In this document: positions 4,994 through 61,704 of the stretch, piece after piece | How positions within the stretch are numbered: the stretch's first letter is position 1 | Layout of the letters: each line of letters opens with the position of its first letter | NCBI GenBank assembly: GCA_964532425.1 | Contig: CAZHIA010000009.1 | Location: 1 to 62,451, forward strand | Direction of reading: 5' to 3' | From: an uncultured Candidatus Saccharibacteria bacterium | Lineage (GTDB): Bacteria > Patescibacteriota > Doudnabacteria > UBA920 | DNA: 62,451 nucleotides | Notes under the pieces: model-generated | Seen by the model: the letters and a program-made list of their open reading frames with translations, nothing else | Told to the model about the DNA's origin: nothing | Databases searched by the model: none | Translations under genes and position numbers: made by a program

Positions 4994-5190
4994 AATTGAC
5001 ATAAATGACATAATTGAACAAAATTGACAAAATTGGAACACAAGAAATTCATTAAAATTTATAGAAACTGATTGAGATTAGTTGTGTCTCACAAATAGTT
5101 TCCATAAATTTCTACTAGTTCCTATTAATTCATGCAGTGGGTAGTAATAATTTTGTCAATTTTGTCAATTTTTTAAATTTTGTTCAATTA
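4994..5190. repeat. word-repeat inverted repeat, family ttgacaaaat (about 200-nt imperfect palindrome)
   Basis: Left arm aattgacataaatgacataattgaacaaaattgacaaaattgg (4994-5036). Right arm taataattttgtcaattttgtcaattttttaaattttgttcaatta (5146-5190). Fills the ATPase-stop to permease-start gap. Confidence 0.8.
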
Positions 5191-5192
5191 CC

Positions 5193-6110
5193 TTATTCTC
5201 TCAGTTCGTGCCCGGTCAGTTTCAAAAATACGTCCTCTAAACTCGGGCGTTTGAGTTGTAAATCGGTTAATTCGGCATTGTTCTTGGCCATTGCGTCAAC
5301 CAGGGCAGGCAAAGTTTGCTGTGGCTGTTTACTGGTCACCACATAACCGGTATTATGAGTTTCAACCGCTTCCGCACCCGGCAGCTGCCGCAGTTTATCC
5401 ACTGGCAGCCTGCGCGCGCTTTGAAACAAGATGCGGGAAGATACCCCACTGCCCCTGACCAGTCCTTCCGTGGTGTTCAACGCAATGATCCGGGCATTAT
5501 CCATTATGGCAATTCGGTCACAGAGAATTTCAGCTTCATCCATGTAGTGAGTCGTCAGTACCAGCGTTTTTCCTTCCCGGTGTATGGTGCGGATAAGCTC
5601 CCACAGGTTCCGGCGGGCTTGCGGGTCAAGTCCAGTAGTCGGCTCGTCCAAAAATATCACCTTCGGGTCATTTACCAGCGCAACCGCTATGGACAGTCGC
5701 TGCTTCTGCCCGCCGGAAAGCTCCTTGACCTTGCTGTGGGATTTGTCTTCCAGCTGCACCAGTTCGAGCAAGGACTGTGCGGACACACGCCGGCCATACA
5801 TGGCACCGAAGGTTTCCAGCAGTTCCAGTAGGTCAAGGCCATCAAAGAACGCTGAAGACTGCAACTGCACGCCGATGCGGCTTTTGACCGCGGCGGTCTC
5901 CTTGGCCACATCAAGCTGGTCCAGCAGGACATACCCTTCCGTAATGGATTTGAGACCCTCCATCATCTCTAAAGTAGTTGTTTTCCCGGCCCCATTCGGT
6001 CCCAAAATGCCAAAAATCTCTCCCTGGCGGACATCGAAAGAGATATGGTCAACCGCTACGAATTCTCCATATTCTTTTGTGAGGTTATAGGCCGTTATTA
6101 TTTCTTGCAT
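5193..6110 (-). CDS. ABC transporter ATP-binding protein (DrrA-like exporter ATPase)
   Basis: Walker A GPNGAGKTT, signature LSGGQKQRL, Walker B VIFLDEPTTGLD. Start taken at MQEII (6110); the ORF could extend to 6128. Confidence 0.9.
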   Translation of the reverse strand: MQEIITAYNLTKEYGEFVAVDHISFDVRQGEIFGILGPNGAGKTTTLEMMEGLKSITEGYVLLDQLDVAKETAAVKSRIGVQLQSSAFFDGLDLLELLETFGAMYGRRVSAQSLLELVQLEDKSHSKVKELSGGQKQRLSIAVALVNDPKVIFLDEPTTGLDPQARRNLWELIRTIHREGKTLVLTTHYMDEAEILCDRIAIMDNARIIALNTTEGLVRGSGVSSRILFQSARRLPVDKLRQLPGAEAVETHNTGYVVTSKQPQQTLPALVDAMAKNNAELTDLQLKRPSLEDVFLKLTGHELRE

Positions 6111-6788: not shown

Positions 6789-6816
6789 ACGAATAGTATA
6801 ACCAAACAACAATTAT

Positions 6817-6930
6817 TCTACAAAACTACCCTGCGGAAATATCCAAATCTACGGAAAACTACGGATTCTCTAAGTGAGGATCCGTAGTTTTCCGTAGATT
6901 TGTAGTTTTGCGTAGCTCCGTAGTTATCTG
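6817..6930. repeat. word-repeat inverted repeat, family ctacgga/ccgtag, with a perfect 22-bp stem
   Basis: aaatctacggaaaactacggat (6845-6866) is the exact reverse complement of atccgtagttttccgtagattt (6880-6901). 13-nt loop, with imperfect word extensions on both sides. Confidence 0.9.
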
Positions 6931-8957: not shown

Positions 8958-8963
8958 AAGCTT

Positions 8964-9057
8964 GAAATTCCAAATATCAAATATCAAATATCAAATTAAC
9001 ACAAATGGGCACGAGCGACTGGTTTCATTTGTAATTTGAAATTTGTAATTTGAAATT
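8964..9057. repeat. word-repeat inverted repeat, family aattccaaat (period-7 arms)
   Basis: gaaattc caaatat caaatat caaatat caaatt versus catttgta atttgaa atttgta atttgaa att. The inner pair is acaaatg / catttgt. Arms are imperfectly complementary. Confidence 0.7.
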
Positions 9058-9063
9058 AATGAT

Positions 9064-10218: not shown

Positions 10219-10222
10219 AATT

Positions 10223-10356
10223 CACAGATGCGCAGATATCACAGATTTCACAGATCTGTATGTCCGGCATCCTTTCTTGTGTCCATAGACCGTACACATA
10301 TATGGCGATACTTTGCATTCCAGTATCTGTGCCATTACTGTGATTCGTGATCAGTG
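10223..10356. repeat. word-repeat inverted repeat, family cacagat/atctgtg
   Basis: cacagatgcgcagatatcacagatttcacagatctgt (10223-10259) versus agtatctgtgccattactgtgattcgtgatcagtg (10322-10356). Starts 5 nt from the nusA ATG. Confidence 0.7.
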
Positions 10357-11035: not shown

Positions 11036-11038
11036 ATT

Positions 11039-11140
11039 TCTACAAATCTACGGATGTATCCTAATCTACAAATACCTACAAATACCCATTGGTGTTATTT
11101 GTAGGTATTTGTAGATTTGTGCCATCTGTAGATTAGTAGT
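11039..11140. repeat. word-repeat inverted repeat, family ctacaaat, with a perfect 22-bp stem
   Basis: aatctacaaatacctacaaata (11063-11084) is the exact reverse complement of tatttgtaggtatttgtagatt (11096-11117). 11-nt loop. Starts 4 nt from the yraN ATG. Confidence 0.9.
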
Positions 11141-11141
11141 T

Positions 11142-11594: not shown

Positions 11595-11701
11595 TGCAAA
11601 AACAGTGTTTTGCCTATTAAATCACACGGGTATTATAAAAGAAAAACCCCCGGGTGTCGAGAGGCTTTTTGCAGCTAACTTTAGCAAATTTACAAATGAA
11701 T

Positions 11702-11780
11702 GCCAATATACAGATACCTACAAATCTCTCCTGGGCAAATCCGTAGTTATCTGTAAATTTGTCATTATCTGTATATTGGC
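11702..11780. repeat. inverted repeat with a perfect 15-bp stem and word-containing loop
   Basis: gccaatatacagata (11702-11716) pairs with tatctgtatattggc (11766-11780). The loop contains the words cctacaaat and ccgtag. Confidence 0.85.
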
Positions 11781-11816
11781 ATCATATTCCATTGAACAAA
11801 CACCAAATAGTCAACA

Positions 11817-12350: not shown

Positions 12351-12387
12351 TTTTGTTTCAAATACAACACTTAGATAATTTCCAATC

Positions 12388-12477
12388 TAGTTCTCTCGCG
12401 GATACGCGAACCTCGCGGAAACCAGATCACTTTAGCCAGCGGCATCCGCGAAATCCGCGTATCCGCGAGATAACTAT
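12388..12477. repeat. word-repeat inverted repeat, family atccgcg (copy 1)
   Basis: tagttctctcgcggatacgcgaacctcgcgg .. tccgcgaaatccgcgtatccgcgagataactat. Its termini are shared with the 13281-13372 copy. Confidence 0.85.
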
Positions 12478-12484
12478 TCAAAGC

Positions 12485-13279
12485 CTACACTTCCTGATAC
12501 AGCTTCTCAATCCTTACCGCCTTTGGTCCATCCGTTTCTACCAGCACCCCATTAATGCATGCCAACCCCTCTTCTTCCGGCTCCATTTTAAATTTCCCTT
12601 TTTCCAAAAATAGGTCCAATGAATTTTGTATCTGTACCCCGATAACGGAGTTTACCGGACCGGTCATGCCGACATCGGTAATGTACGCCGTGCCGCCGGG
12701 AAGGATCGTTGCGTCAGCCGTCGGTATGTGGGTATGAGTACCGACTATCGCTGTAACTCTGCTATCGAGGTAGCGTCCTAATGCGATCTTTTCGCTGGTT
12801 GCTTCCGCATGAAAGTCTACTAGTATTATATCACCTTTTTGGCTTTGCTCACGGAGGATATCATCCATGCAAAAAAATGGGTTCTTGACGTCGCCGTCGT
12901 ACAACCGGTCAAAAAAAACTTTGCCATTCATATTAATGACCAAATACGACTGCTCATTGATGGTAAACCGGTAATAGCCGTGTCCAGGCTGGTTTTCCGG
13001 GTAATTGGCCGGCCGGATCAGCTTGCCATACTTTTCGAAACATTCGGCTGACAAAGCGCCTTTGTCGAAGACATGGTTACCAGAGGTATAACAGTCAATA
13101 TCCAGATTATCGAATTCGGCTAGCGTATTGGGCGTCACCCCTTTACCGTGAGCCATATTTTCCACATTCACAATGATTGCATCCGGCTGAAACTGTTCTT
13201 TCCACACAGGCAAAACCTCCCGCAGCGCCCTGCGCCCCGGTTTTCCTACAATATCGCCGATGAATAGTATTTTTGCCAT
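12485..13279 (-). CDS. ymdB: YmdB-like metallophosphoesterase (TIGR00282 family)
   Basis: MAKILFIGDIVGKPGR, VNVENMAHGKG, DFHAEATSEK, GTHTHIPTAD. Lies downstream of rny, as in Bacillus. Confidence 0.9.
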   Translation of the reverse strand: MAKILFIGDIVGKPGRRALREVLPVWKEQFQPDAIIVNVENMAHGKGVTPNTLAEFDNLDIDCYTSGNHVFDKGALSAECFEKYGKLIRPANYPENQPGHGYYRFTINEQSYLVINMNGKVFFDRLYDGDVKNPFFCMDDILREQSQKGDIILVDFHAEATSEKIALGRYLDSRVTAIVGTHTHIPTADATILPGGTAYITDVGMTGPVNSVIGVQIQNSLDLFLEKGKFKMEPEEEGLACINGVLVETDGPKAVRIEKLYQEV

Positions 13280-13280
13280 A

Positions 13281-13372
13281 TAGTTCTCTCGCTGATACGC
13301 GGATGACGCGGACCTCGCTGTACGAGATTCTCCGCGCCATCCGTGAAGTCCGCGTATCCGCGAACTAACTAT
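13281..13372. repeat. word-repeat inverted repeat, family atccgcg (copy 2)
   Basis: tagttctctcgctgatacgcggatgacgcgg .. tccgcgccatccgtgaagtccgcgtatccgcgaactaactat. Overlaps the rny stop codon and starts 2 nt from the ymdB ATG. Confidence 0.85.
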
Positions 13373-15200: not shown

Positions 15201-15368
15201 ATAATCCGAATCTACGAATGTATCCCTGCCTACCGGCAGGCAGGCAAATGCCCCGAATGGGCTATTCCTCTCCTTTTCAAAGGAGAGGTTAGAGCCTGCC
15301 TCGGACTTGATCCGGGGTGAGGTTATTCGGGGAATTTGGATTGCGAGTATTCGGATCATTAGGATTAT
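15201..15368. repeat. composite inverted repeat with GC-rich inner hairpins
   Basis: Outer pair ataatccgaatctacgaatg .. tattcggatcattaggattat. Inner hairpins are cctgcc tacc ggcagg and cctctcct tttcaa aggagagg. Positions 15207-15249 match the left arm of the 44555 unit. Confidence 0.7.
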
Positions 15369-16096: not shown

Positions 16097-16453
16097 CTAC
16101 TTCTTAGCAGTCTTCTTGGCTTTGCGCATGCGCGGGGTATTGTCCTGGCGGGCGCGGACGTAATAAATCTTGGACTGGCGCACTTCCGGCTGCTTAACCA
16201 CTTCCAGCTTGACGATATTCGGGGAATGAATCGGAAAGATTCTTTCCACGCCAACACCGGAAGAAATCTTGCGGACAATAAAGGTACCATTAACGCCATT
16301 GCCGCCTTTTTTGGCGATGACCAATCCTTCAAAAATCTGGACGCGCTCCTTGCCGCCTTCTTTGATGCGGTTGTGGACCCGGACCGTAGCTCCGGTGCGG
16401 AACTCAGGCAAAGTCTTCACCTGAGATTGCGAAATATGCTTGACGATAGGCAT
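16097..16453 (-). CDS. rplS: 50S ribosomal protein L19
   Basis: MPIVKHI..LPEFRTGATVRVH..ERVQIFEGLVIAKKG..RKIS.GVGVERIFP.HSP. Start at 16453. Confidence 0.95.
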   Translation of the reverse strand: MPIVKHISQSQVKTLPEFRTGATVRVHNRIKEGGKERVQIFEGLVIAKKGGNGVNGTFIVRKISSGVGVERIFPIHSPNIVKLEVVKQPEVRQSKIYYVRARQDNTPRMRKAKKTAKK

Positions 16454-16460
16454 TATACTA

Positions 16461-16538
16461 CCTTTGACCTTTGACATGTGACATTTGACTTTCTGCACTA
16501 GCAGTCGGTCAAAGGTTAAATGTCAAATGTTAAATGTT
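16461..16538. repeat. word-repeat element, family tgacatttgac (copy A)
   Basis: cctttgacctttgacatgtgacatttgacttt, loop ctgcactagcagtcg, then gtcaaaggttaaatgtcaaatgttaaatgtt. The arms are near-identical to copy B at 51977-52056. Confidence 0.9.
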
Positions 16539-17594
16539 CTAAAGTTGATTAACTGCTTTACTTCCTAATTCATTTAAAATTTCCTTCAAATCTGCCGCCA
16601 AGTCCGATTCCGCCTCTATCCATGTACCATCAGGCAGGCGAACTTCGATCTTCTTGGCATGCAGGAACTGGCGAGTCAGGCCGGGCAATTGGCCTTTCTT
16701 TGTACCATATAGTGGATCTCCCACTAAGGGAAATCCGGCGGAAGAAAAATGAACGCGGATCTGGTGCGTTCTACCTGTGTGCAATTTTACCAGAACCAGG
16801 GTGTATTCGTCAAGACTGGTTTTTATGTCATCGCGAGGAGGCAAGGGCTTTATCTTGCCGATGTGGCGATCTTCCGCAGTATAGATTGCTTCGCCCTCAG
16901 ATGCATTCGGTCTCGCAATGACACCAGAAGTCAGATACTCCAACACTCGGTACTCCGTCAAAGACGGCTTAGCCTCAACCATATTTGTTGTGCTGTATTT
17001 GCGAAAATCCGTCTTACTCCGCCCGATCGGCTGGTCAAAGAACCCATGCGGGTGTTCCATCCTGCCGGCGACTAAGGCGATGTATTCTTTCTTAATCCTT
17101 CGCTGCCCAAAAGCATCCTTCAGATACTCATACATATCCTGCGTCGTAGCCACCAGCATGACGCCGCTCGTGTCCTTATCGAGCCGATGGACAATACCGG
17201 GACGACCTTCTTCCCCCACCACTTGAATATCTTTGAAATGATACAGCAGCGCGCTCGCCAGGCTTTCCCCTTTAAATCCTGCTCCCGGATGTACGGCCAG
17301 CCCTGCCGGCTTGTCGATGACAAGCAGTCCGTGATCGTGATATAGAACTTTAAGCGGTGTATTTGTGGCTGTTATTTCGGATTTTGAATTGCGGATTTCG
17401 GGTTGCCGATACTGTATCACATCATCTTTCCTAACCACATACTTACTCTCATTCTGCTCAACTCCGTTGACTGAAACCAGCCCAGCTTCAATATCCCGCT
17501 GGATCTGGCTGCGGGAAATCTCGGGCAAATCGGCCGCAATAGCCTTATCGAGCCGAGTTTTGAGATCTTTGACTTGAAACGAATGTGAGTCCAT
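16539..17594 (-). CDS. RluA-family pseudouridine synthase (RluD-like) carrying a 32-codon in-frame insert
   Basis: S4 domain, HRLDKDTSGVMLV catalytic motif and TGRTHQIRVH. Start at MDSHSF (17594), since the upstream ORF extension has no homology. Confidence 0.9.
   Translation of the reverse strand: MDSHSFQVKDLKTRLDKAIAADLPEISRSQIQRDIEAGLVSVNGVEQNESKYVVRKDDVIQYRQPEIRNSKSEITATNTPLKVLYHDHGLLVIDKPAGLAVHPGAGFKGESLASALLYHFKDIQVVGEEGRPGIVHRLDKDTSGVMLVATTQDMYEYLKDAFGQRRIKKEYIALVAGRMEHPHGFFDQPIGRSKTDFRKYSTTNMVEAKPSLTEYRVLEYLTSGVIARPNASEGEAIYTAEDRHIGKIKPLPPRDDIKTSLDEYTLVLVKLHTGRTHQIRVHFSSAGFPLVGDPLYGTKKGQLPGLTRQFLHAKKIEVRLPDGTWIEAESDLAADLKEILNELGSKAVNQL
16827..16922. repeat. 96-bp palindromic element inserted in frame in rluD
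   Basis: Terminal inverted repeats gtcatcgcgag (16827-16837) and ctcgcaatgac (16912-16922), 10/11 complementary. Inner hairpin ggcaag..cttgcc. Length is exactly 32 codons. Confidence 0.75.
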
Positions 17595-28041: not shown

Positions 28042-28086
28042 ACTACAAATCTACGAATGAATGCGAATCTACAAATACCTACAAAT
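28042..28086. repeat. left arm of the ~45-nt inverted repeat enclosing a GxxExxY gene
   Basis: actacaaatctacgaatgaatgcgaatctacaaatacctacaaat. The reverse complement of 28481-28524 matches it at both ends. Starts 1 nt after the smc ATG. Confidence 0.8.
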
Positions 28087-28092
28087 TATATT

Positions 28093-28482
28093 TTATAGGT
28101 TTTGATCTGAATTCAAAACTCTTCGTATTTTTAATGTTTTATCTCTAAAATTTACTATTATTCCCAGCTTCAGTTTTGTCTCGTGCAAATATCTCTTTAT
28201 CTAGGAAAAATCACAATCCATCAAAAAAGCTTTATCTTTCAGCTCGAGTATAATTTTATCCTCAATCACAAAATCGGCGATGTTTTTGGAGCTTCCAATT
28301 ACCAACTCTCTTCTGTATTTAATTCCGCACCCCTTTAACCGATGTTCAATATAATCTCCATATTGCTTCTCTTTTGCAAATCTGCCCAAGCTATTATGCG
28401 CTTCAAAAAGAATTCCGGTAAGAATGTAGCTCAAATCACCATAGAGCAATTTTGATTGTCCACTAACCTTGCCGTCGGGCAT
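28093..28482 (-). pseudogene. GxxExxY / PD-(D/E)XK-like family gene, frameshifted
   Basis: The 93-aa ORF (LGRFAKEKQY, DFVIEDKIILELK) stops at 28201. The family C-terminus IKRYLHETKLKLGIIVNFRDKTLKIRRV continues in another frame down to the stop at 28093-28095. Confidence 0.7.
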
Positions 28483-28524
28483 TTGTAGGTATTAGTAGAT
28501 TTGTTTAATCCGTAGATTTGTAGT
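28481..28524. repeat. right arm of the inverted repeat enclosing the GxxExxY gene
   Basis: atttgtaggtattagtagatttgtttaatccgtagatttgtagt. Overlaps the GxxExxY start codon. Confidence 0.8.
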
Positions 28525-28551
28525 TTTGTCTCGTTTGTAGACTGAAAATGA

Positions 28552-30570: not shown

Positions 30571-30572
30571 TG

Positions 30573-30687
30573 AAAAATTCCTAATTCCTAATTTCTAAAT
30601 CCCAAACAAAATTCCCAATACCTCAATTCCCAAATTGATTAATGGATCTTTATTGGAAATTAGATATTGGGAATTGGAAATTATTTT
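30573..30687. repeat. word-repeat inverted repeat, family aattccaaat
   Basis: aaaaattcctaattcctaatttctaaatcccaaacaaaattcccaatacctcaattcccaaatt .. ttggaaattagatattgggaattggaaattatttttt. Spans exactly from the ftsH stop to the start of the 30570 gene. Confidence 0.75.
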
Positions 30688-37677: not shown

Positions 37678-38463
37678 TTATCTATTCAGTGTCCCGGCGA
37701 CTACTGCCACGATCGTATAAGAAAGGATGACCACAACCAGTCCGATAACGGCGTTGACGAGCGTGTTCTTGCCTTTCTCTGCCTGCTCGCCATTACCAGC
37801 CGAGGTAATGTACCAGAAGCCGCCTAAAATAATGAACACAACAGCAATAGCTCCGGCAAACTGCAATAACATTTTGATAATCTTTTGGAGCAGCGTCGGC
37901 AAGGTATCGGCATTGTTCCAGCCAGTGTTGGTTTGGGGAATACAGATGCCATTCTTAAAATCATACCCCGCACCGCAATTTCCTGAACCACCACCCGAAC
38001 CAGAACCCCCAGTACCGCCCGTACCGCCAGTTCCACCAGAACCTCCGGTCCCACCGGTTCCACCAGCACCTCCAGCTCCAGTATCTCCTCCCGTTCCGCC
38101 GGTGCCAGTTCCACCCGTACCAGTCCCCGATCCGCCCCCTGGATTATTGGACATGCATTCGTTGGTAATAGGATTCATGGTATACCCAGAATTGCATTCG
38201 CACGCTCCGGTAGAATTATTACAGCTTTGATTGGAACCGCATGTCTTGCCCGCGCACGGGTTAGTCTGCGTGCCGCCTTGGTCGTATACGCAGGTGCCGC
38301 TGCCCGGATCACATGCCAATCCTCCGGCAGTGTCGCAATCGGAATTTTGGGAGCAGGATCCGCCAATACCTACCGTTCCCGCAAACGCTAAGGGGGACGC
38401 GACTGCCAGCAGACTGACTGCAACCATTCCAGCTATTAAAAATTTTGGGAATAGTTTATTCAT
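37678..38463 (-). CDS. TrbC/VirB2-like 'T4SS pilin' paralog 1 with a Cys-rich head and Gly/Thr/Ser linker
   Basis: Signal peptide, 12-Cys EGF-like region, (GGT/GGS)n linker. C-terminal module FWYITSAGNGEQAEKGKNTLVNAVIGLVVVIL lies between two hydrophobic helices. Confidence 0.8.
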   Translation of the reverse strand: MNKLFPKFLIAGMVAVSLLAVASPLAFAGTVGIGGSCSQNSDCDTAGGLACDPGSGTCVYDQGGTQTNPCAGKTCGSNQSCNNSTGACECNSGYTMNPITNECMSNNPGGGSGTGTGGTGTGGTGGDTGAGGAGGTGGTGGSGGTGGTGGTGGSGSGGGSGNCGAGYDFKNGICIPQTNTGWNNADTLPTLLQKIIKMLLQFAGAIAVVFIILGGFWYITSAGNGEQAEKGKNTLVNAVIGLVVVILSYTIVAVVAGTLNR

Positions 38464-38466
38464 ACC

Positions 38467-38853
38467 TCAAATTTGCCCGTTACCGACTAAATTGCTGACC
38501 ACCGTAACCAGCACATAGGACAAGGCGATAACCACAATACCAATTAGGGCATTGACCACGGTGTTCTTGCCTTTTTCCGCGGACTCGGCACTGCCGGCTG
38601 AGGTGATATACATGTAACCGCCATAGACCAGGAAAATAATGGCAATCGCTCCGGTAAACATGAGCATGAGCCGTATCACGTTCGTGATCAATTCCATAAC
38701 CGATTGGGAATTCCCCAACCGTCCGGAGTTACCAAAAATGCTCCTGAGTCCGCTTCCGCTCAAACCTTCGCTGACCGCATCGGCAAACGCCACCAGCGGT
38801 ACCGAAACAGCCGCACCGGCAGCAACAAGGCCTTTGATGAATTTGTTTTTCAT
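38467..38853 (-). CDS. TrbC/VirB2-like 'T4SS pilin' paralog 2 (minimal form)
   Basis: Signal peptide plus YMYITSAGSAESAEKGKNTVVNALIGIVVIAL module. 128 aa. Confidence 0.85.
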   Translation of the reverse strand: MKNKFIKGLVAAGAAVSVPLVAFADAVSEGLSGSGLRSIFGNSGRLGNSQSVMELITNVIRLMLMFTGAIAIIFLVYGGYMYITSAGSAESAEKGKNTVVNALIGIVVIALSYVLVTVVSNLVGNGQI

Positions 38854-38992
38854 ATTATTTCATTATGTTTTTGAACTGGTCTTTTGGTGCAACTGGGATT
38901 CCACAAAAAGATCGGTCCAAAAATTAGGAAGTTCCTGCCCCGCTTCCAGCAGTATAAGCTGCCGGCGTGCGGGGCAGGAATCAAATTTATGG

Positions 38993-39403
38993 TTACGGGG
39001 TTGAAGTCCCAGTACCAGCATTGCTGACCAGGTTGGAAACCACGCTGACGATAACGTATGAAAGCACGATAATAACGATACCGATCAAAGCGTTAACTGC
39101 AGTGTTCTTGCCTTTTTCCGCGGACTCCGCGTTACCGGCAGAAGTGATGTACTGGAAACCGCCGATAATAAGGAACAAAACCGCGATACCGAAGGCGATA
39201 CCGAGCATCCAGCGAATCACGGTGGTGATAAGCCCGTTGACGCTCGTACCGGCGTTACAGTTCACGCCGCCCAACTGGTTGCAGTCCACACCGGAAGACA
39301 GCGCAAAAGCGCTCGCCACCGGCACTACCGTTATGGCAATAACGGCAATAATCTCTGCAATTTTGAGGAAATCGATTTTTCTTATTTGTTTCAAGCTGTT
39401 CAC
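38993..39403 (-). CDS. TrbC/VirB2-like 'T4SS pilin' paralog 3 (minimal form)
   Basis: FQYITSAGNAESAEKGKNTAVNALIGIVIIVL module. GTG start at 39403, or TTG at 39394 behind gagagggg. Confidence 0.8.
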   Translation of the reverse strand: MNSLKQIRKIDFLKIAEIIAVIAITVVPVASAFALSSGVDCNQLGGVNCNAGTSVNGLITTVIRWMLGIAFGIAVLFLIIGGFQYITSAGNAESAEKGKNTAVNALIGIVIIVLSYVIVSVVSNLVSNAGTGTSTP

Positions 39404-39490
39404 CCCCTCTCGGGTTTCAAAGATATGAATATCCTTGTTTGCTAATAATAGTATACTATAAAAACCGCAAAAGTTAAAACGAATTTCCCT

Positions 39491-40231
39491 CTAGTTATGT
39501 CCTACCGAATAACCGCAAACTTTAGCGACTACTTTTTGATCCGTGGCCCCGGGCACCCCATATTCCGCCAGATATGAATTCACGCCCGTCGTCTGGAACG
39601 GGGCATACCCGATAGGTGTATCATTCGGAGTTACTACCTCCAAGACCGGCGCGGGGTACCCCTTTGCCGTACAGTAATCTACTATGGCCTGTTGTTTGTC
39701 AGGAGTCGTACCAACATACACGCGCAATCTCCCGGTGCTCGTTAAGAACTGCGGGTTGTTGATGGCGTTGTTCATTTGGTCTTGCAGTGCCTGCATGCGC
39801 TGCTCATTAGTTGTTCCTCCCCCGCTACCGCCCGCGCCAGAGCCAGAGCCGCCCGATGAATTAGTAAGGGTGTTGGTCACCAGGCGGACAATGAGCGATG
39901 ACAGTAAAATCACCGTAAGCCCAATGACTGCATTGACCAGGGTATTCTTTCCTTTTTCCACACTCTCGCCGTTGCCGGCCGAGGTCAAATACCGGAAACC
40001 GCCCAAAATTATGAACAGCACCGCCACACCGCCAGCCAGCATGAGCAGCAAGTTAATGGCTTTAAGGAGAATGCCGTTGGCCGTGCAATATTCTGCCGGC
40101 ACCCAGTCAAACAAGCCACCAAAAGACGACACCCAGCTCGGACACCCGGAGCTTGCGGCCTGGACGAGAGATGGAACCGTGATGGCCGTCAGGGCAGCGA
40201 CCATGATAAATATTTTTGTTTTTTGCGACAT
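39491..40231 (-). CDS. TrbC/VirB2-like 'T4SS pilin' paralog 4 with a C-terminal extension domain
   Basis: FRYLTSAGNGESVEKGKNTLVNAVIGLTVILL module in the N-terminal half, then a Gly/Ser linker and a ~100-aa C-terminal domain. Confidence 0.8.
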   Translation of the reverse strand: MSQKTKIFIMVAALTAITVPSLVQAASSGCPSWVSSFGGLFDWVPAEYCTANGILLKAINLLLMLAGGVAVLFIILGGFRYLTSAGNGESVEKGKNTLVNAVIGLTVILLSSLIVRLVTNTLTNSSGGSGSGAGGSGGGTTNEQRMQALQDQMNNAINNPQFLTSTGRLRVYVGTTPDKQQAIVDYCTAKGYPAPVLEVVTPNDTPIGYAPFQTTGVNSYLAEYGVPGATDQKVVAKVCGYSVGHN

Positions 40232-44483: not shown

Positions 44484-44554
44484 ACAAATATTATACCATT
44501 TTACATGTAATAATAAAATATCACTGTCGTATGGTATAAGACGGATAAACGTTA

Positions 44555-45063
44555 ATATATCGAATCTACGAATAAGACCTGCCTACCGGCAGGCAGGCGA
44601 ATCTACGAAGGGCTACGAATCCCTACTGCGCAATACGCGATGCGGCAAGGCAGACTTTGCCCAAAAGTTAATTAATAAACCAATTCTAAATCTAAAATTT
44701 TAATATACCTTTGCACTTGTGAAAAATCATCGCGATTTAAAAAAGGTTTCGCTTTACACTCAACCAAAATCTTATCATATAAAATAAAGTCGACACGGTT
44801 CCCTGTTCCACTCACAACCAACTCTCTCCGAATGGGGATATTTAACTCCTGAGCTCTTTTCTCAAATAAATCATTGAATTGTTTTTCCTTAGCAAAGTGA
44901 CCTAATCTATTTTGTACATAAAAACATATTCCAGCTATCTGGAAGCATTCATCAGCATACAAGACTTTAATTTTATCCACTTTATATCTTGTACTCATTC
45001 GTTTATTCGTAGTCCTTCGTAGATTCGTTCTGCGGACTGGCAGAATTCGTAGATTCGATATAT
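44555..45063. mobile_element. candidate mobile unit: GxxExxY gene bracketed by ~65-nt terminal inverted repeats
   Basis: atatatcgaatctacgaat (44555-44573) is the exact reverse complement of 45045-45063. The inner segment gaatctacgaagggctacgaat (44599-44620) matches the rc of 45005-45026 at 21/22. The mobility call is inference only. Confidence 0.4.
44672..44998 (-). pseudogene. GxxExxY / PD-(D/E)XK-like family gene, C-terminus probably frameshifted
   Basis: 108-aa ORF (LGHFAKEKQF, VDFILYDKILVECKAK, QVQRYIKIL). The expected GLLINF motif (RIGLLINFWAK..) is readable only in another frame, between 44613 and about 44690. Confidence 0.6.
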
Positions 45064-46565
45064 TAATCTGCCTTGGGCCGGTATTGAATCGCTTCGGCCA
45101 AATGTTTTGTAGTGATCACTTCAGACTGATCGAGATCCGCTATGGTCCGAGCGACTTTCAGGATGCGGTGCAAGCTGCGGCCGGAAAAATTATAACTCTT
45201 CATCGCCTGGCGCAGTACCATATCCTCCTGGGCACCGAGGACGCAAAATTTCTTGATTTCGACGATGTTCATTTCGCTGTTGGTCTTGCTGGACCCGAAG
45301 CGCCGATACTGGAGACTTCTCGCCTGCTGGACGCGCTGTTTGACCGCGGCCGAACTCTCTGCCGGCTGCTGTTGCATTTTTTCATACGGTAAACGCGGCA
45401 CTTCCACATGGAGATCGATGCGGTCGAGCAACGGACCCGAAACTTTTTTTTGATATTTAAAAATCTGGGACGGAGTGCAAACGCACCGCTTGGCATCATC
45501 GCCGAGGTATCCGCACGGGCACGGGTTTTGGGCGGCTACGAGCGTAAATTTTGCGGGAAACGAGCAGCTTCCAGCGGCTCGCGCGACAGTCACGACACCA
45601 TCCTCCAGCGGCTGGCGCAGCGACTCCAGAACGTTGCGTGGAAATTCCGGGAACTCGTCCAAAAACAAAATTCCGCGGTGAGAGAGCGTGATCTCGCCAG
45701 GCTTTGGATTGGCCCCGCCGCCGACCAGCGCCACGTTGGACGTGGTGTGATGCGGATGGCGCACCGGCCGACTCGTTACCAGGCCGCCACCCAGCTTGCC
45801 CGCAATACTATAGATCTTCGTCAGCTCCAGTGCTTCCTCAGCATTGAGATCAGGCAAAATACCTGCCATAGCCCGGGCCAACAGCGTCTTGCCGCTGCCT
45901 GGCGGACCGGAAAGTAACACGTTATGAGCACCGGCAGCGGCTATTTCCAAAGCGCGCTTGGCCAACTCCTGGCCGGCAATGTCTTTCATATCCATGGCCG
46001 GCTGCAAATTCTTCAAAATTTCTTCGGCTTTAAATGGAACCGCAGGTGCGAGCATCTCCAGCCCGGTCAAATGCATAAGCAATTGACCGAGTGAGCCAAC
46101 GGGATATACGATCACTCCGGACACCAAGGCCGCCTCCTGAATGTTGCCTTCGGGCACATACAGTTCGGCAATACCCAGCCGTTTGGCGAGCAATGCTACC
46201 GCAAGCACGCCCGGCACCGGGCGAAGCTTGCCATCAAGTGACAACTCACCTAAAAACAGTTTGCACTGGGGGTCAAACGAGGTCTGGCCGCTTGCCAATA
46301 AAATCGCCAGGGCTATAGGCAAGTCAAAGTGCGTTCCCAACTTGGGCACATCTGCCGGTGCCAGATTCACACTGACTCGGGTCGGCGGATAAGTGCAGTC
46401 CGAATTTTTAATAGCTGATTTGACCCGTTCCCGGCTCTCCTGCACGGCAGTATCAGGCAGACCCACTACGATCGTAGCAGGCAAGCCATTCGTTACATCA
46501 GCCTCTACTTCGATCAACTCTCCGTCAAGGCCGATAACTGCTGCTGAAAACACTTTGGATGTCAT
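45063..46565 (-). CDS. comM: YifB/ComM family Mg-chelatase-like AAA+ ATPase
   Basis: Lon-like N-terminal domain, Walker A GPPGSGKTLLA and GILFLDEFPEF. Start at MTSKVF (46565), since the upstream codons are word repeats. Confidence 0.93.
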   Translation of the reverse strand: MTSKVFSAAVIGLDGELIEVEADVTNGLPATIVVGLPDTAVQESRERVKSAIKNSDCTYPPTRVSVNLAPADVPKLGTHFDLPIALAILLASGQTSFDPQCKLFLGELSLDGKLRPVPGVLAVALLAKRLGIAELYVPEGNIQEAALVSGVIVYPVGSLGQLLMHLTGLEMLAPAVPFKAEEILKNLQPAMDMKDIAGQELAKRALEIAAAGAHNVLLSGPPGSGKTLLARAMAGILPDLNAEEALELTKIYSIAGKLGGGLVTSRPVRHPHHTTSNVALVGGGANPKPGEITLSHRGILFLDEFPEFPRNVLESLRQPLEDGVVTVARAAGSCSFPAKFTLVAAQNPCPCGYLGDDAKRCVCTPSQIFKYQKKVSGPLLDRIDLHVEVPRLPYEKMQQQPAESSAAVKQRVQQARSLQYRRFGSSKTNSEMNIVEIKKFCVLGAQEDMVLRQAMKSYNFSGRSLHRILKVARTIADLDQSEVITTKHLAEAIQYRPKAD

Positions 46566-51966: not shown

Positions 51967-51976
51967 TGTATTAAAA

Positions 51977-52056
51977 CCTTTGACCTTTGACATGTGACAA
52001 TTGACTTTATGGGCCGCAGGCCTCTGTCAAAGGTTAAATGTCAAATGTTAAATGTT
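51977..52056. repeat. word-repeat element, family tgacatttgac (copy B)
   Basis: cctttgacctttgacatgtgacaattgacttt, loop atgggccgcaggcctct, then gtcaaaggttaaatgtcaaatgttaaatgtt. The left arm is 31/32 and the right arm 31/31 identical to copy A. Confidence 0.9.
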
Positions 52057-52130
52057 GTATTATAAGTATACGAACGTTCACCTATACCAGTATACCACAT
52101 GCTCACAAGCACGCAAGCCCACCCTGGGGA

Positions 52131-53081
52131 TTACTGGCCGGCAGACACCCCGGCGCTCTGAGCCAAAAATGGCACATTATCTAGGCGTTCCCCGCTTCGA
52201 CCCAAGGGACCAAGCCGTTGACTACCCAACGTGGCAATAGTTGCTCCTGCGTTAGAAGTAGAAATGGAAATTTTAGTTTTCGCTTGCAATGTTTTAACAT
52301 CACCGGCGTGATACACGGCAACCTCCTCCCGTTGGTCATCTACGCTCATATGCAGCTCGACAGTATCCGTGAATTCCAGCTGAAGGGAAAAGACGCTGTC
52401 ACCGGCCACCATCCCAGCTTCACCGACGATCGAAACAGACTTGCCGGTCGCTTTGCCAAACTTGTTTCTCGCAACAAATTCCAATTGTTTCGGGCCGCTG
52501 CCTACGCCTACTTTTGTTTTAAACTCACCCCGGTCATCGACAAAAACATTCTCGCCGTTGATGGTCACGTTCATACCGGGCTCAGTTTTTCCGCTCACAC
52601 TCACCGATGAATCCTTGATAATTTGACGGTCCTTTGGTTCCAGAATTTCCAATGCCGGCGCCCTATTGATGGACAAGATCTGCCAAATGATATAGACCAA
52701 GGTTCCCGTCACGAATACAACACCGGCGGTCACCGAAAGAACCTTCGGGGTAATGACCACGCGAGAAAACCAGTTTTTATTCAAATGCTGCTGGGCTTTT
52801 TGCCTAGTCAGCTGCTGCTGGATCATGCGCTCGCGCTTGTACTGGCTAATCAACATTTCCACATCAATATGATACAAGGCACCAAGCTGCCGCAAAAACC
52901 CTAACACATACACGTCGGCCGGCAGACGCTCGAAATTACCCTCTTCCAAATCTGCTATAAACTGCTGTTTGACTCCGGATTTTTCGGCCACCTCAACCAA
53001 GCTCAAATCCAGCTGTCCACGCACCTCGGCCAAGTATTCCCCAAGAGTTTCCAGATTGATTTTTTTAGTTTCGAATATCAT
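52131..53081 (-). CDS. rodZ: RodZ-like protein (HTH, TM helix, C-terminal beta domain)
   Basis: HTH LSLVEVAEKSGVKQQFIADLEEGNFERLPADVYVLGFLRQ, followed by one TM helix. Start at MIFETKK (53081). Confidence 0.7.
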   Translation of the reverse strand: MIFETKKINLETLGEYLAEVRGQLDLSLVEVAEKSGVKQQFIADLEEGNFERLPADVYVLGFLRQLGALYHIDVEMLISQYKRERMIQQQLTRQKAQQHLNKNWFSRVVITPKVLSVTAGVVFVTGTLVYIIWQILSINRAPALEILEPKDRQIIKDSSVSVSGKTEPGMNVTINGENVFVDDRGEFKTKVGVGSGPKQLEFVARNKFGKATGKSVSIVGEAGMVAGDSVFSLQLEFTDTVELHMSVDDQREEVAVYHAGDVKTLQAKTKISISTSNAGATIATLGSQRLGPLGRSGERLDNVPFLAQSAGVSAGQ

Positions 53082-53086
53082 AATAG

Positions 53087-53341
53087 AAAATTCCAAATCT
53101 CAAATTACAAACCTGGGGACGACATGTGACCTGTAACCATTGACATTTGACCGTAGTGCAAGCCCCGTAGACTTGTTGTACGAGGCAGGCCAGTGGCCTG
53201 CCCCGTGTCAAATGTCACATGTCAATTGTCAAATGTCCCTTGTCTGTTTATTTGTGTTTTGTGATTTGGCCCCATCATTCGATGGGACCACCCCGTCGCA
53301 TGACGGGGTGGATTTTTATTGGAAATTGGGAATTGGATTTT
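53087..53341. repeat. two-level nested word-repeat inverted repeat (aattccaaat outside, tgacatttgac inside)
   Basis: Outer pair aaaattccaaatctcaaattacaaa .. ttggaaattgggaattggatttt. Inner pair 53121-53151 / 53207-53237. The core holds ggcaggcc agt ggcctgcc (53184-53202) and ccaccccgtc gcat gacggggtgg. Confidence 0.8.
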
Positions 53342-61172: not shown

Positions 61173-61316
61173 AAGGTTAGTTAAAAGTTTAAAGTGTAAA
61201 GTTGAAAATATAAATAGCGAATTAAAATATTTACCGAGAGAACGTTTGACATTTAACCATTCACCTTTGTCCGAGAGTTAAAAAGTCAAATGTTAAATGT
61301 TAAAGGTTAAATGTTG
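61173..61316. repeat. word-repeat inverted repeat, family tgacatttgac / aacttta
   Basis: aaggttagttaaaagtttaaagtgtaaagttgaaaat .. tttgacatttaaccattcaccttt .. agtcaaatgttaaatgttaaaggttaaatg. Begins at the nucleotide after the malic enzyme ATG. Confidence 0.6.
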
Positions 61317-61320
61317 GGTA

Positions 61321-61704
61321 CTATGCTTTGTGAAGCATTAGGATCCGCTTTTCAAATCCTCCGTTCTTGCCCCGCTTCTCTTCCTGGACTTTGTCGACAT
61401 CTTCACTGCTCCACCTTTTCAGTTTGAGTAGCGTATCGATAAGCTCGGTGACGTCAGCAATCTCTTCGATCATATTCCCCGCTTCCAGCGAGTGCGCGAG
61501 CTCTGTCGCTTCTTCAACTATTTTTTTCAAAATGAATTTTTCAAATTCCTGGTCGCTTTCTAATATCCGCGTCGGTACGTCAGTGCCGTTCTTCTGTTTT
61601 ATGATTACCGGAATGTTGTCACGAACAAGCTTCGGGTACTTTTGCTCGATTGGCAAATCAGTGGATGTGAAGTCCATATATTTTTTATAAATTGTGTTGT
61701 TCAA
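61321..61704 (-). CDS. MazG-like nucleoside triphosphate pyrophosphohydrolase
   Basis: YPKLVRDNIP and EEATELAHS..EEIADVTELI. The start may be 61677 rather than 61704. Confidence 0.75.
   Translation of the reverse strand: MNNTIYKKYMDFTSTDLPIEQKYPKLVRDNIPVIIKQKNGTDVPTRILESDQEFEKFILKKIVEEATELAHSLEAGNMIEEIADVTELIDTLLKLKRWSSEDVDKVQEEKRGKNGGFEKRILMLHKA

Follow-up and report, generated by a model that had tools for sequence, protein, structure and literature searches.

The window analysed here, a 62,451-nucleotide (nt) stretch of DNA, belongs to a genome of the Patescibacteria, or candidate phyla radiation (CPR). Between the stop codon of comM and the start codon of galU it carries a small gene of the GxxExxY (PF13366) family, enclosed by two inverted arms of short repeated words. 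This unit—hereafter called copy 1—belongs to a family of cassettes in which the gene and its arms move together between intergenic sites. The only ribosomal RNA (rRNA) sequence in the window is the 5′ end of a 16S gene at 1-322, and copy 1 lies outside it. The parts of copy 1 and the native spacer beside it are listed below. Coordinates without a locus handle refer to the window, and handles of the form L081 denote the comparison loci.

44552..45066, minus strand: whole cassette copy 1, consisting of the 5′ arm, the frameshifted GxxExxY gene and the 3′ arm, transcribed in the same direction as comM and galU.
44999..45066, minus strand: 5′ arm, in the sense direction TTAATAT-ATCGAAT-cta-CGAAT-(17-nt GC mini-hairpin)-CGAAT-cta-CGAAg-gacta-CGAAT-aaaCGA, then ATG.
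45028..45045, no strand assigned: GC mini-hairpin TTCTGCGGACTGGCAGAA, inside the N4 spacer of the 5′ arm and missing from the homologous arms of L081 and L091.
44613..44998, minus strand: GxxExxY / PF13366 PD-(D/E)XK gene, about 128 amino acids (aa) in the restored frame, with its TAG stop (44613-44615) inside the inner arm word.
44552..44626, minus strand: 3′ arm, with the inner word and dyad (44598-44620), a GC mini-hairpin (44578-44597) and the outer dyad (44552-44573).
44484..44551, minus strand: native comM-galU spacer outside the cassette, 68 nt, with TGGTATAAT at 44490-44498, 6 nt ahead of the galU ATG.

A sequence-only reading of this stretch had reported an outer inverted repeat (44555-44573 against 45045-45063, 19/19) and an inner one (44599-44620 against 45005-45026, 21/22). 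Both are real, and both are longer: the outer repeat pairs 44552-44573 with 45045-45066 at 22 of 22 positions, and the inner repeat pairs 44598-44620 with 45005-45027 at 22 of 23. The GC-rich mini-hairpin placed between the blocks of each arm is present as well, at 44578-44597 and at about 45028-45045, the latter visible in the fold. Two boundary details had to be corrected. The unit had been said to fill the galU-comM gap exactly, while 68 nt (44484-44551) remain outside it on the galU side; its last arm base had been taken for the first base of the comM stop codon, while the 5′ arm overlaps that codon (45063-45065) entirely, plus one further base. The cassette ends read TTAATAT/ATCGAAT...ATTCGAT/ATATTAA, which leaves only a palindromic AT or TTAA as a possible target-site duplication.

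The 12-mer CGAATCTACGAA, with at most one mismatch, occurs 7 times in the window against 0.19 expected, and the flank-to-flank inverted-repeat score of copy 1 is 49, as compared to 15.1 ± 2.2 in shuffles (about 15 standard deviations above). These word counts and shuffles, together with the comparison of open reading frames (ORFs) given below (55% versus 0.7%), rule out a chance or artefactual origin of the repeats. In addition, L163, an independent assembly of the same strain, carries the identical 3′ arm, base for base.

As it stands, the enclosed ORF (44672..44998, minus strand) encodes 108 aa and matches PF13366 (PDDEXK_3) with E 1.3e-8, which bears out the earlier assignment of the gene to the GxxExxY family and the PD-(D/E)XK superfamily. 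The homologues are 125-132 aa long, and the ORF of copy 1 is truncated by a 1-nt deletion near 44680/44681 (TTGGT, as compared to TTAGGT in L081), which could also be a sequencing error. With the frame restored, the PF13366 score rises from 35.6 to 52 bits (cut-off 22) and the TIGR04256 score from 32.1 bits, below the cut-off of 35, to 50.3 bits, so that the restored protein exceeds both curated cut-offs. The restored frame continues ...LGLLINFWAKSALPHRVLRSRDS and ends at the TAG (44613-44615) within the inner arm word ATTCGTAG; the start codon is also part of a word (ACGAATG).

The PD-(D/E)XK residues were sought as an E on helix 1, a D on strand 2 and an ExK on strand 3. E38, D70 and E80 do not vary among 86 sequences, more than 90% of which also have K82, and the window copy has all four residues. 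The AlphaFold model built from these 86 sequences has a predicted local distance difference test (pLDDT) score of 88.4, as compared to 57.6 for a first model from 25 sequences, and shows an α-α-β-β-β-α-β-β topology with the PD-(D/E)XK core. Within the clade whose arms are built of CGAAT words, the ratio of nonsynonymous to synonymous substitution (dN/dS) is at most 0.1, indicating purifying selection on the protein. Sequence searches found no relative with a solved structure, no PADLOC match to a defence system and no homologue in the plasmid and phage collections; the sole match among phage families was phrog_5928, of unknown function, and nothing among the known RNA families came near the gathering score. 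PF13366 has been classed as "unknown, multiple transfers" (PMC3424549), and our literature search found no paper connecting GxxExxY or PF13366 with inverted repeats or mobility. In some GxxExxY proteins, the variable N- and C-terminal tails come from translation of arm words, as MRTNDTNNTNN does from ACGAATGAGAACGAATGATACTAAT (L115 712-760 and 1100-1168; L118 2486-2510).

How did copy 1 come to lie between comM and galU? In the closest relatives, L165 and L166 (galU 82% identical), the gene order lspA-comM-galU-SBP-pilin is preserved, and the comM-galU spacer measures 57 and 63 nt, respectively, with the arms and the ORF both missing. In the more distant L005, the spacer is 14 nt. A GTDB scan with comM returned only distant relatives (at most 60% identity) and provided the background set and one useful empty site. 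The search for empty sites at the orthologous locus, which the sequence-only reading had proposed, thus succeeded: copy 1 is an insertion at comM-galU, and the empty orthologous sites rule out an ancestral resident gene there.

In other CPR genomes, homologues with 60-81% aa identity are bounded by the same arms and occupy more than nine different intergenic sites; their contexts include galT-tpiA (L081), pil genes (L091) and at least seven more. In the CGAAT clade, the arm reads from outside to inside (A)TCGAAT-N3-CGAAT-N4-CGAAT-N3-CGAAT-N5-CGAAT, with the other side inverted, and the cores and their spacing are conserved while the spacer sequences vary. Other protein clades have other words at similar spacing, namely CGAAA, CTAAT, ACAAAT/ACGGAT, ACAGAT, CGCTGAT and TACCAAT. 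The word family tracks the protein clade, as protein distance correlates with the 5-mer content of the arms (Mantel r = 0.72, p = 0.001). Moreover, another proposed check, whether GxxExxY genes are systematically flanked by inverted repeats, turned out positive: 55% of 78 GxxExxY ORFs have a flanking inverted repeat (score at least 36), as compared to 8 of 1129 other ORFs (0.7%). The cassettes are co-oriented with the neighbouring genes in 87% of cases, against a background of 73%. A full cassette is thereby built of a PF13366 PD-(D/E)XK gene of about 125 aa and two inverted arms of 50-70 nt, each with five 5-nt cores at 3-4-3-5-nt spacing, and the arms span from the stop codon of the upstream gene to a few bases before the next start codon. 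Gene and arms move as one block between intergenic sites.

At L167 (7828-10381), three cassettes of three clades (30-49% aa identity) occupy three consecutive spacers of one operon resembling a type IV secretion system (T4SS), with PrgI, TraC-like and VirB4-like genes, and each cassette has its own word family in both arms. Since three word families stand side by side in one operon, a single host factor reading one sequence cannot explain the arms. The order of the dyads is swapped between the two arms of CGAAT-clade units (L081, L091, L098, L101, L104, L099 and unit 3 of L167): CTR-type spacers precede CAA-type ones in the 5′ arm, whereas in the 3′ arm, read as its reverse complement, CAA-type spacers precede CTG-type ones. 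The CGAAT-clade arms are therefore not simple mirror images.

Occupied sites turn over. In L099, L110 and L123, the flanking genes are 80-95% identical at the aa level, while the resident proteins are 47-48% identical and belong to different word families, with the upstream TAA and the downstream ATG as the exact limits of homology. The same replacement pattern is found between L081 and L108, and between a second cassette in the window (copy 2, described below) and L118. Different clades thus replace one another at one site. The T4SS-like operon is a hot spot, with spacers variably occupied in L099, L110, L115, L121, L123, L124, L137 and L139. Its site between the PrgI-like and TraC-like genes holds full cassettes in L121, L124 and L137 and a cassette with a PF05635 gene in L139. 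In L099 and L110, the gene is missing and the arms retain a remnant of 60-85 nt, and in L115 the 45-nt spacer is empty.

The gene-less copy of L099 reveals how such hairpins form. Compared with a full unit 700 nt away, its 5′ arm is identical at 47 of 47 positions and its 3′ block at 84 of 86, and it retains the 3′ end of the coding region. Because the coding 3′ end is kept, gene-less hairpins arise by internal deletion, and decayed cassettes account for at least some of the hairpins in CPR genomes. Individual copies decay in other ways as well: copy 1 has a frameshift, copy 2 a nonsense codon and L102 an in-frame stop, while L107 has a shortened ORF of 110 aa with 5′-arm words upstream of the called ATG. 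At the start of the L123 contig (1-120), a word block of the 3′-arm type is present in three tandem 43-nt copies. Together with L163, which starts inside an arm, these repeats indicate that assemblies tend to break here.

The second cassette of the window lies between rnc and smc, and gene-less elements of related design stand elsewhere:

28042..28545, minus strand: second cassette (copy 2) between rnc and smc, with arms of CAAAT/CGGAT/CTAAT words at the same 3-4-3-5 spacing.
11036..11141, no strand assigned: gene-less hairpin in which the two arms of a copy-2-type cassette, 5′ and then 3′, are joined by a 13-nt loop and match the arms of copy 2 at 46/54 and 47/52 positions.
6813..6923, no strand assigned: gene-less hairpin CAAAT-cta-CGGAA-aacta-CGGAT of the same word family, with a free energy of -56 kcal/mol.
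15207..15340, no strand assigned: composite gene-less element with the CGAATCTACGAAT word, the CCTGCCTACCGGCAGGCAGG mini-hairpin as in the 3′ arm of copy 1, and further small hairpins.

The gene of copy 2 (restored at 28093..28482) has an in-frame TAG at 28201-28203, at the position of a conserved Gln, and L118 has an intact gene at the same rnc-smc site. Judging from their reading frames, both window cassettes appear to be pseudogenes, and they are old and diverged. The claim that the arms consist of the same words as the gene-less hairpins holds in part. The exact word CGAATCTACGAA occurs outside copy 1 only at 15207, whereas the other gene-less hairpins have related words (AATCTACGGA, AATCTACAAAT) at identical spacing, which match the arms of copy 2 (28042-28545). 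The proposal that the word hairpins derive from gene-carrying units fared better, given the L099 arms (47/47 and 84/86) and the copy-2 arms at 11036-11141. What the sequence-only reading observed was largely right, although the broken frame of copy 1 and the second cassette had escaped it, and the outline of its interpretation, in which hairpins derive from a unit, is supported.

In total, the window has at least 12 word hairpins of several families. Intergenic hairpins of other families are found at 4994-5197, 8960-9063, 10219-10346, 11685-11782, 12351-12484, 13280-13368, 16436-16541, 30571-30687, 51976-52073, 53097-53240 and 61268-61338, with the word families TTGACAAAAT, TTGACATTTGAC, CGCGGAT, CACAGAT and TTCC[CT]AAT. 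Words similar to CGCGGAT and ACAGAT make up the arms of GxxExxY clades that are more distant (L154 and L148), and for the TTGAC word families no gene-carrying counterpart was seen. The ymdB-like (12485..13279) and rodZ-like (52131..53096) genes were considered as cassettes and rejected, each of their flanks being a separate self-complementary hairpin. The GC-rich mini-hairpin module CCTGCCTAYCGGCAGGCAGG, along with the second one, TTCTGCGGACTGGCAGAA, recurs at 44578-44597, 15225-15244, 45028-45045 and in the 5′ arm of L105, and is thus present in the window genome and in one other genome. In both window arms and in L105, it occupies the N4 spacer between two word dyads, while the copy at 15225-15244 stands after a lone CGAATCTACGAAT word. 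The module looks like a nested, tiny palindromic insert.

Among known elements, the intervening sequence (IVS) of the Coxiella burnetii 23S rRNA offers the closest comparison. It is 428 nt long, its terminal repeats form a 28-bp stem, its decaying ORF is preceded by three to four tandem GACAGAT heptamers, and it is excised by RNase III; the origin and mobility of rRNA IVSs have been an open question since about 1990 (PMC4990558). The cassette likewise is a selfish insert of about 0.4-0.5 kb with terminal inverted repeats forming a long stem, and its small loop ORF directly follows tandem short repeats (GACAGAT in Coxiella; CGAAT or ACAGAT here). ACAGAT, the core of the Coxiella heptamer, is among the word cores of these cassettes. 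The ORF is often decaying in both, with a sporadic, horizontally transferred distribution, and PF05635, the family of the IVS ORF, is found in the same type of arm in L139. In contrast, the cassette lies between protein-coding genes, outside any 23S or 16S rRNA helix; its ORF is a PF13366 PD-(D/E)XK protein and not S23p/PF05635; and its arms are longer ordered arrays, with five words per side at 3-4-3-5 spacing. Cutting by RNase III is known for the Coxiella IVS and is a prediction for the cassette. A survey of CPR rRNA insertions lists PF05635 and not PDDEXK_3.

The PF05635/TIGR02436 "four helix bundle" gene of L139 (3461-3940) stands in word arms of the same design, with CTAATT words, and weaker arms surround such genes in L108 (at about 4146) and L081 (4613-5005). 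Therefore, the arms do not need a GxxExxY protein, and a specific tie between arms of this kind and GxxExxY becomes less likely.

The minimum-free-energy fold pairs both arms (window unit, z = -8.0; L081, z = -3.0), and the host encodes RNase III (rnc). The predicted stem of copy 1 would be long enough for RNase III to excise the cassette from the transcript. Given TGGTATAAT 6 nt before its ATG, the galU start is likely leaderless, and a TATAAT box before the ATG is also present at the empty sites of L005 and L165. Such boxes, 6-8 nt ahead of the ATG, are seen at galU (44490-44498, minus strand), L005 7540-7556, L115 1755-1773 and L165 2486-2503. Their closeness to the ATGs points to leaderless mRNAs as a common type in these genomes, and a transcript cut at the 3′ arm might thus still be translated.

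The cassette is best described as an IVS-like mobile cassette with a PD-(D/E)XK gene, living in protein-coding operons. We consider it somewhat probable, nuclease-driven spread included, that copy 1 is a decaying copy of a selfish, IVS-like cassette family of about 0.5 kb that is common in Patescibacteria/CPR. We propose the following cycle. In the operon transcript, the two arms would pair into a long, interrupted stem. The host RNase III would then cut this stem as in the 23S IVS, and the cassette would be excised from the mRNA; we propose that the host operon thereby suffers little harm. At the DNA level, the encoded nuclease may recognise the clade-specific word arrays of its own arms. It would cut these arms or the cognate gene-less hairpins, and repair would copy the cassette in. 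Such copying may proceed as homing or gene conversion, with the arms or the conserved flanking genes as the homology.

The combination of conserved cores at fixed spacing, free spacers, clade-specific words and conserved catalytic residues is in keeping with a nuclease reading its own arms. The arms themselves appear constrained: synonymous sites in the CGAAT clade have reached saturation (dS > 1.8), with an identity of 0.31 at fourfold sites, while the arms are about 82% identical (0.82-0.83, values inflated by repeats sliding in the alignment).

Several points weigh against this account. Concerted evolution within the repeat arrays could mimic selection on the words. Selection for an RNA stem is not demonstrated, since arm mismatches show no significant excess of G·U over A·C (60 versus 44, p = 0.14) and covariation of the spacers between the arms is absent. 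Active insertion need not underlie the replacements at a given site, which could instead be allelic exchange by way of the conserved genes on either side. The target-site duplications that the sequence-only reading had suggested seeking did not emerge: no consistent direct repeat was found across 14 units, and none was clear or unambiguous. In the Foldseek search against the PDB, the best matches are PD-(D/E)XK nucleases, and they are so weak and generic (E of 6e-3 or higher) that no functional assignment follows; the match to the PD-(D/E)XK homing enzyme I-Bth0305I (E = 0.46, TM = 0.36) indicates a relation at the superfamily level only. In addition, the PF05635 four-helix-bundle proteins, which are not nucleases, in arms of the same build argue that an arm-reading nuclease is not the whole story. 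Finally, cleavage, binding and transposition are all postulated, and the step from the nuclease to mobility is purely our inference.

We put forward only tentatively, as a possibility that is more doubtful than the cassette account as a whole, that GxxExxY proteins are the mobility or maintenance factors of IVS-type elements, with each clade cutting its own array of 5-nt words and thereby driving copying into gene gaps or cognate hairpins. If this is true, an autonomous mobile element guided by words, as yet undescribed, would be defined by PF13366 and, by analogy, by PF05635. A large part of the DNA between CPR genes would stem from its decayed copies, and it would explain the origin of the rRNA IVSs. 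Because each clade pairs with its own word (CGAAT, CGAAA, CTAAT, ACAGAT or CGCTGAT), binding and cleavage tests are straightforward to design.

Free-standing homing endonuclease genes, as generally known, are similar in that a small nuclease gene is wedged between conserved genes, is present or absent at orthologous sites, and reinvades the same site before degenerating. They differ in having no long inverted repeat arrays. Furthermore, PF13366 has no demonstrated endonuclease activity, and one cassette clade occupies many unrelated loci.

Could the element instead act through RNA only? Its arms would then be an IVS-type RNase III stem, the ORF would be a passenger or an RNA-level accessory, and spread would follow only from ordinary recombination through conserved flanking genes after DNA uptake, with no role for the nuclease in mobility. 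The build shared with the Coxiella 23S IVS, the two unrelated ORF families (GxxExxY and PF05635) in one arm type, the strong predicted closing stem, the co-orientation with neighbours (87% versus 73%) and the repeated occupation of identical sites all agree with this explanation. However, one clade with its own arms resides at more than nine unrelated loci, which is impossible via flanking-gene recombination. Moreover, cores and spacing are conserved while spacer pairing is not, with no G·U excess; the three word families stay distinct within the one operon of the L167 genome; and the catalytic residues are under strong purifying selection. We regard an RNA-only element as rather unlikely.

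A further alternative is a non-autonomous terminal inverted repeat (TIR) element, similar to the miniature inverted-repeat transposable elements (MITEs), which is moved by a transposase or recombinase encoded elsewhere, with the words as sub-terminal binding sites and the GxxExxY gene as cargo. The cassette does show the TIRs and the presence or absence at orthologous sites that mark such elements, and, from general knowledge, its TIRs with ordered sub-terminal direct repeats resemble transposon ends. In Tn7 and Mu, too, each end repeats a short motif several times, at fixed spacing and in inverted orientation between the ends, and TnsA of Tn7 is a PD-(D/E)XK protein. MITEs, the Correia elements of Neisseria and the enterobacterial repetitive intergenic consensus (ERIC) elements are likewise, as generally known, short intergenic elements with TIRs that fold into hairpins, are co-transcribed with their neighbours, and are more numerous without a gene than with one. 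Gene-less copies are common here too, and PF05635 cargo is found in the same arm type, which also favours this alternative.

Nevertheless, the gene-carrying "master" cassette encodes no recognised transposase: the sole ORF of the cassette is PF13366, and among the called genes of the annotated loci there is no transposase, beside a unit or elsewhere. Unlike Tn7 and Mu, the cassette has no DDE transposase partner, measures 0.5 kb with a single 125-aa protein, and has a motif spacing of 8-10 bp. Its gene-less copies are internal-deletion derivatives, and a single genome can hold many word families. As the word family follows the clade of the cargo, and several families share one genome, one trans-acting factor per family would be required, and no clear target-site duplication is established. 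Mobilisation in trans is improbable. Integron cassettes with attC sites were set aside without a formal test, as neither arm is self-complementary, the ORF has an arm on each side and the annotated loci showed no integrase.

A resident, non-mobile host gene with regulatory inverted repeats (autoregulation, or translational control through pairing of the 5′ and 3′ untranslated regions) and unrelated terminators as the other hairpins would suit the purifying selection on the protein and the rnc-smc cassette shared by the window and L118, but it is very improbable, being already contradicted by the empty orthologous sites and by different clades at one site in close relatives, and further opposed by the frequent pseudogenes and by gene-less hairpins demonstrably derived from full units.

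To return to the IVS-like mobile cassette, PF13366/GxxExxY and PF05635 are large, sporadic and often multi-copy families of unknown function, and they now have a testable context: both orphan families are found in cassettes of one architecture, which have demonstrably moved, replaced one another and decayed. The present results suggest that remnants of cassettes make up many of the hairpins between genes in streamlined CPR genomes. Such remnants bear on annotation, on models of operons and RNA processing, and on assembly, as contigs break at these repeats (L163 and L123).

Two minor observations concern neighbouring sequences. On the same L081 contig as the GxxExxY and PF05635 cassettes, a small DUF559 gene (Vsr-like PD-(D/E)XK) lies at 1060-1452 between htrA-like and ruvX. 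In the window, four direct repeats of about 141 nt with 65-70% identity extend over 37709-40028, and they are probably repeated coding domains.

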